Part shown: positions 30,424 through 30,475 of the stretch, piece after piece
Numbering within the stretch: position 1 is the stretch's first letter
How the letters are laid out: each line of letters begins with the position of its first letter
The notes under the pieces: generated by a model
Told to the model about the DNA's origin: nothing
Databases searched by the model: none
The model's input: only the letters and a program-made list of their open reading frames with translations
DNA from: Escherichia coli
Lineage (GTDB): Bacteria; Pseudomonadota; Gammaproteobacteria; Enterobacterales; Enterobacteriaceae
DNA length: 64,000 bases
Assembly (NCBI RefSeq): GCF_044324875.1
Contig: NZ_CP172185.1
Direction: 5' to 3' (one strand)
Made by a program: the position numbers and the translations under genes

Positions 30424-30439
30424 TTGATAATCATTCTCG
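30424..30439 (+). promoter_or_regulatory. Putative Fur box in the mntH promoter
   Basis: tgataatcattctc closely resembles the Fur consensus core GATAATGATAATCATTATC. Confidence 0.4.
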
Positions 30440-30453
30440 TTTGACATAGCATG

Positions 30454-30475
30454 AAACATAGCAAAGGCTATGTTT
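30454..30475 (+). promoter_or_regulatory. MntR operator (perfect palindrome) upstream of mntH
   Basis: AAACATAGC-aaag-GCTATGTTT, perfect 9-bp inverted repeat with 4-bp spacer, ending 13 nt before the mntH ATG. Confidence 0.6.

Follow-up and report, generated by a model that had tools for sequence, protein, structure and literature searches.

The 52-bp block at positions 30424–30475 seems, with a probability of about 0.93, to be the core promoter and operator of Escherichia coli mntH, a compact region that would integrate several signals through Fur, MntR and an OxyR-like site. The Fur and MntR operators of this gene are confirmed as real, highly conserved and ordinary elements that are already well studied. 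The motifs, their scores, the promoter geometry and the conservation were established here, the regulation comes from published work on K-12 and Salmonella, and the position of the transcription start and the steric mechanism are our own deductions. The comparison set consisted of 80 mntH loci from about 25 enterobacterial genera, for which 300 nt upstream of the gene were aligned, and motifs were counted in 89 upstream sequences.

The window (the whole stretch of 64,000 nt that was analysed) is E. coli chromosome with the gene order pdeA, nupC, mntH. The elements on which the argument depends are the following:

30287 to 30341, plus strand: region of two weak upstream mntH starts of K-12, which map to 30302 and 30341 (Kim et al. 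2012)
30377 to 30413, no strand assigned: OxyR-like motif ATAA-N7-CTAT-N7-ATCA-N7-CCAT, directly upstream of the −35 element, a putative activator site
30418 to 30444, plus strand: remnant of ypeD, 8 codons and TGA here; the K-12 annotation (b4819, 29 aa) is equivalent to 30418–30507
30420 to 30444, no strand assigned: putative Fur operator, two overlapping 19-mers at a 6-bp offset containing TGATAATCATTCTC, top match of the matrix
30424 to 30429, plus strand: predicted −35 element TTGATA from the promoter scan, inside the Fur operator and found in all 89 upstream regions
30444, plus strand: SNP, A here and G in K-12 by alignment, a spacer position of the promoter that is also the outermost base of the second Fur 19-mer
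30447 to 30452, plus strand: predicted −10 element TAGCAT from the promoter scan, ending one nucleotide before the palindrome
30454 to 30475, no strand assigned: putative MntR operator, perfect inverted repeat AAACATAGC-AAAG-GCTATGTTT, assigned by matrix score and conservation
30477 to 30481, plus strand: Shine–Dalgarno sequence AGAGG, 6 nt ahead of the mntH ATG, read from the sequence and conserved in related loci
30488 to 31726, plus strand: mntH coding sequence, a 412-aa NRAMP Mn2+/H+ symporter (open reading frame list, NCBIfam NF001923, RefSeq annotation)

The open reading frame at 30488 matches the MntH profile NF001923 with 622.6 bits, and a 369-bp region of the locus was matched, at 94–99.7% identity and with the annotation mntH, in 5,424 of 5,426 complete E. 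coli genomes. The neighbours of mntH are those of K-12, namely the divergent nupC, pdeA, ypeC and yfeO, and mntR, which in K-12 is about 1.66 Mb distant, falls outside the window. K-12 carries IS186 (insL3) between nupC and pdeA, whereas this strain lacks it and has about 50 bp there (28900–28950). The mntH promoter region was present twice in one genome of the E. coli search, and in one record a copy of it sits on a replicon that bears a plasmid label. Elsewhere in the window, a tRNA cluster on the minus strand within 23062–23614 comprises Lys(ttt) and three Val(tac) genes followed by an RtT RNA match (23062–23187; 51.6 bits, gathering score 45), and the plus strand carries two tRNA-Ala(ggc) genes at 26313–26503.

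The MntR and Fur operators

The perfect 9-4-9 palindrome that the sequence-only reading had placed ahead of mntH can be read directly at 30454–30475, with AAACATAGC at 30454–62, AAAG at 30463–66 and GCTATGTTT at 30467–75, and its arms are 100% complementary; the spacing of 13 nt to the start codon given in that reading corresponds to 12 intervening nucleotides, with the ATG at 30488 lying 13 positions past the end of the repeat. Perfect inverted repeats with arms of 9 nt or longer and loops of at most 10 nt number 32 in the window, against 2–8 in Markov shuffles; thus, the perfect symmetry is unremarkable by itself and the significance of the palindrome comes from its sequence-specific match. 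The inverted repeat carries the ATAGC-N4-GCTAT core of enterobacterial MntR operators, and AAACATAGC-N4-GCTATGTTT with up to three mismatches occurs once in the window versus 0.05 expected occurrences. Moreover, a matrix from which mntH was excluded, trained on only three K-12 sites (one of mntS and two of mntP) that were located by similarity to the mntH palindrome within known MntR-target intergenic regions, gave the palindrome 27.7 bits. No other site of the window exceeded 9.7 bits and the null maximum per 64 kb was 11.9 ± 2.1, the largest value in 200 simulations being 21, and the palindrome therefore passes the matrix scan that had been proposed for it.

The sites upstream of mntS and mntP are reportedly those of the E. 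coli MntR regulon, an assignment attributed to Waters et al. in 2011. The mntS site AGATATAGCACAGGCTATATTA and the mntP sites GAATTTAGCCAAAGCTATGTTT and AGACATAGCTTAGGCTATATTA have the core ATAGC-N4-GCTAT in common with the mntH site, and among all of them only the mntH site is perfectly symmetric. MntR has been described to bind the inverted repeat in the mntH promoters of both E. coli and Salmonella (PMC3327659). The protein is an activator at mntP, where it acts from far upstream, and a repressor at mntH, where its site overlaps the start point (PMC4361602).

The left arm of the palindrome is invariant in the comparison set. The perfect form with GCTATGTTT as right arm is found in Escherichia, Citrobacter, Salmonella and Kluyvera only, and the other genera have GCTATATTT, in most cases, or GCTATATCT. 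A single nucleotide separates the repeat from the −10 hexamer on one side and from the mntH Shine–Dalgarno sequence on the other, and this spacing is fixed in the 89 sequences, in all of which the upstream region reaches an MntR score of at least 27.4.

A palindrome so close to the ribosome-binding site could also be read as an RNA hairpin in the mntH leader that acts on stability, translation or metal sensing and not as a DNA operator. If transcribed, it would form a hairpin of 11 bp (−12.4 kcal/mol, z = −4.95) ending 2–3 nt before the Shine–Dalgarno sequence, and transcripts from the weak K-12 starts at 30302 and 30341 would include it. However, transcription from the predicted main start, at about 30458–30460, would begin within the left arm and yield an unstructured leader of about 28–30 nt (−1.5 kcal/mol). 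In 60 of the 89 orthologous sequences, the right arm has a G-to-A change that would produce a C–A mismatch in the hairpin, with no compensation in the left arm; AAAG, which a 4-nt loop would not need to preserve, is unchanged in 88 of 89; and the half-site core recurs, as described above, upstream of mntS and mntP. Taken with this evidence, a function of the palindrome as RNA is very unlikely, and a DNA operator for MntR is the preferred reading. When the whole window was scanned, no Rfam family reached its gathering threshold in the mntH leader, and none matched at E ≤ 1 in 30150–30600, the manganese riboswitch included; a yybP-ykoY manganese riboswitch, another leader RNA or an sRNA was rejected on this basis. 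The palindrome was considered as a terminator as well, and there is no terminator-like site at this position.

Regarding the iron-responsive side, the Fur-like box TGATAATCATTCTC / tgataatcattctc occupies 30425–30438 and is separated from the palindrome by 15 nt (30439–30453), exactly as had been described from the letters, the start at 30424 that was given for it being the first T of TTGATA. A Fur matrix was built from 14 other Fur-regulated promoters of K-12, with mntH excluded, and it recovered two 19-mers spanning 25 bp, one at 30420–30438 on the plus strand (14.5 bits) and one at 30426–30444 on the minus strand (20.9 bits, or 22.7 bits with a slightly different training set), the latter being the top match of the window. 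Its 20.9 bits fall inside the leave-one-out range of the 14 training sites (8.0–23.6, median 20.1), so the box stands up to the matrix scan as well. Nevertheless, the null maximum per 64 kb was 15.5 ± 2.5, with 24.2 as its largest value, and the site is only about 2 sd above it; therefore, the case for Fur leans on position and conservation too. The second-best match, at 48605–48623 (15.7 bits), is at chance level according to this null and was discarded. The 7-1-7 Fur motif is matched at 12 of 14 positions by the box, and such matches number 2 in the window versus 0.33 expected.

The box could be merely an AT-rich −35 region, in which case iron control of mntH would be indirect or exerted via MntR. 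Ikeda et al. (2005) are said to have seen, in Salmonella, some cross-talk of Fe via MntR, which was counted in favour of this explanation. The box does coincide with the −35 hexamer, so that its conservation is confounded with promoter function, and the classical Fur 19-mer is matched at only 15 of 19 positions, a search for it with up to three mismatches finding nothing in the window. However, the matrix score is at the median of bona fide sites, the 6-bp offset between the two overlapping sites is the characteristic one, and conservation reaches well beyond the hexamer, to ATCATTCTC; the Fur core TTGATAATCATTCTC is nearly invariant in the 89 sequences, whose median Fur score is 23.7. Moreover, a published scan of K-12 found the site independently (Chen et al. 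2007; PMC2189734) and lists for mntH a 19.9-bit Fur cluster of two sites that is centred at −56 and covers 25 bp. That scan used a cutoff of 10 bits and its lowest proven site had 10.1 (PMC2189734), and its position −56 corresponds to about 30432 in the window, where the core sequence is identical to that of K-12. Fur-dependent repression of an mntH promoter–lacZ fusion has also been reported (PMC4676285). An AT-rich −35 region that mimics a Fur box is thus extremely unlikely, and direct binding of Fur is favoured.

Core promoter, upstream elements and transcription starts

The promoter scan identified a sigma-70-like promoter, TTGATA-17-TAGCAT, with 9 of 12 matches and a 17-nt spacer. Across the 89 sequences, the −10 hexamer varies at positions 3–5 only (TAGCAT, TAGCTT, TAATAT, TAACAT and others), and 88 of them retain T1, A2 and T6; this pattern is the signature of a −10 element and thus supports the assignment. 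The distance from the −35 element to the repeat is 24 or 23 nt. Both operators lie within this predicted core promoter and not outside the promoter and 5′ UTR, a location that the sequence-only reading would have taken as evidence against its proposal. From this geometry, transcription would start at about 30458–30460, inside the left arm of the palindrome.

The comparison with mapped mntH starts, which had also been suggested, was made with K-12 data. Kim et al. (2012) list two weak starts in K-12, at 2510914 (11 reads, 5′ UTR of 186 nt) and at 2510875 (5 reads, 5′ UTR of 147 nt), which map to upstream positions in the window (PMC3415461 supplementary file 2), and their K-12 exponential-phase dataset contains none near 30459 (PMC3415461). 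Repression of the promoter in metal-replete exponential culture would account for the absence of a start near 30459, which is not positive evidence for that start. A coordinate search of Cappable-seq tables, which are probably truncated, likewise gave no start close to the predicted +1. The extended −10-like elements TGcTATGTT (30287–95) and TGcTAACAT (30325–33) precede the starts at 30302 and 30341 by 7–8 nt, and the first of them has the 8-mer GCTATGTT in common with the right arm of the MntR site. Transcripts from these two positions would have a leader of 147–186 nt carrying ypeD and both operators. It could be imagined that such promoters provide long-leader mntH transcripts on which Fur and MntR act as roadblocks, a hairpin forms by the Shine–Dalgarno sequence and translation of ypeD modulates that of mntH, and in that case the natural ypeD nonsense alleles (TGA, TAA) would lead to strain-specific basal levels of MntH; this arrangement is considered improbable, and initiation at the core promoter is retained as the main route.

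The same K-12 dataset contains a start in the direction of nupC, at 2510716 (13 reads), which corresponds to about 30500 on the minus strand; it is antisense within the first mntH codons, and its transcript would run back across the MntR and Fur operators (Kim et al. 2012). A further candidate, TTGACA at 30441–46, which is created by the SNP, was rejected as a new promoter, there being no acceptable −10 element 16–18 nt downstream and the nearest candidate, TATGTT, being 22 nt away. The nupC–mntH intergenic region contains a second conserved block at 30209–30332, with CRP-like sites at 30248–30263 (TGTGACCAGCTTCAAA, 1 mismatch) and 30317–30332 (2 mismatches) and a minus-strand promoter-like TTGAAG-18-TATAGT at 30262–30233; this block is presumably the CRP/CytR-controlled promoter of nupC.

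The OxyR-like motif agrees with ATAG-N7-CTAT-N7-ATAG-N7-CTAT at 12 of 16 positions, and with 2 such matches in the window and about one per 64 kb by chance it is weak when taken alone. Three of its four elements, AT (30377–78), CTATC (30388–92) and AATCA (30398–402), are conserved in the 80 loci. OxyR induction of mntH has been stated in the literature, together with a regulatory scheme in which MntR, Fur and OxyR act on this gene (PMC4361602).

Conservation of the block and the ypeD reading frame

The 52-bp block is nearly invariant in the 80 Enterobacteriaceae loci and its flanks diverge. [quoted passage not shown] Nine E. coli alleles taken across the identity range had their variation confined to 30439–30453 and to positions upstream of 30424, and one strain among these sampled alleles showed a C-to-A change in the Fur core. 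The sequence-only reading had seen in this locus a clean example for comparing operator strength and spacing across strains, an expectation that did not hold, since E. coli offers little variation and its palindrome is essentially invariant. Over about 25 genera and about 5,400 E. coli genomes the block hardly changes and, thus, a comparison of operator strength within E. coli would be uninformative.

In K-12, ypeD overlaps the Fur box, the −10 element, the MntR palindrome and the start of mntH (by 20 nt). [quoted passage not shown] The G-to-A change at 30444 turns codon 9 of ypeD (30442–44) from TGG into TGA, so that the intact 29-codon frame is absent from this strain, and the Fur matrix score is unaffected (22.7 versus 22.8). 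The spacer allele of the window is present in 288 E. coli records (about 5%) and the K-12 allele in 3,691; in other E. coli lineages, ypeD is cut by TAA one codon earlier. Over the 89 sequences, the frame is 8, 11, 23, 24 or 29 aa long.

These observations bear on the proposal that the block is conserved because it encodes YpeD, the operators being a by-product of coding constraint. The gene is annotated in K-12 and was picked up in ribosome profiling, and Salmonella and Citrobacter koseri are reported to have apparent homologues (bioRxiv 10.1101/2021.07.02.450978); moreover, 80 of the 89 sequences retain the ATG at 30418. However, besides the stop codons that interrupt the frame in this strain (TGA) and in other E. 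coli lineages (TAA), a 1-nt difference in the spacer shifts the frame in most genera, giving products such as MILIIILILIA*, and the DNA is still nearly invariant. At 30451, many genera have ATT or ATA in place of the internal ATG, and conservation tracks the dyad symmetry and the promoter hexamers instead of codon position. Coding constraint is hardly credible as the cause of the conservation, and regulatory constraint on the promoter and its operators remains the preferred cause. The apparent conservation of ypeD in Salmonella and Citrobacter is most simply explained as a by-product of operator conservation.

Regulatory model and known systems

In the model proposed for the mntH promoter, dimers of Fe2+-Fur would occupy the two overlapping 19-bp sites at 30420–30444, approximately −40 to −16, and thereby cover the −35 element and the spacer and exclude RNA polymerase. 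A dimer of Mn2+-MntR, a protein of the DtxR family, would occupy 30454–30475, approximately −6 to +16, and could block open-complex formation or escape from the promoter. Together, the two proteins would cover the region from about −40 to +16, and either metal alone could repress. The OxyR-like site at 30377–30413, directly upstream, would mediate induction by peroxide.

Dual repression of E. coli mntH by Fe-Fur and Mn-MntR is attributed to Patzer and Hantke (2001, J Bacteriol 183:4806) in later papers (PMC4361602, PMC9806134, PMC3327659, PMC4676285). The co-repression by iron and manganese that the sequence-only reading had invoked as known is the regulation reported there for K-12 mntH. This dual repression was published in 2001 and the feature is, thus, already known. 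With regard to reporters, a plasmid-borne PmntH-egfp fusion in BL21 was unresponsive to Mn(II), and PmntS was responsive (PMC9806134). Control of enterobacterial mntH by Fur and MntR (and OxyR) has been a textbook case since 2001–2002 and the present analysis adds little to it; its modest additions are a confirmed annotation of the window, the finding that the operator block is almost frozen, and a caution on the conservation of ypeD.

A close parallel is found in Salmonella. The Salmonella loci of the comparison set have an identical palindrome and TTGATAATCATTATC, whereas their Fur core is ATTATC instead of the ATTCTC of E. coli and their spacer sequence is also different. For mntH of Salmonella Typhimurium, Kehres et al. 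are said to have reported in 2002 an OxyR motif upstream of the −35 element, a Fur site over the −35 element and an MntR repeat between the −10 element and the ribosome-binding site. The order of the OxyR-like motif and the Fur and MntR sites in the window resembles the one reported for the Salmonella Typhimurium mntH and sitABCD promoters (Kehres et al. 2002; Ikeda et al. 2005).
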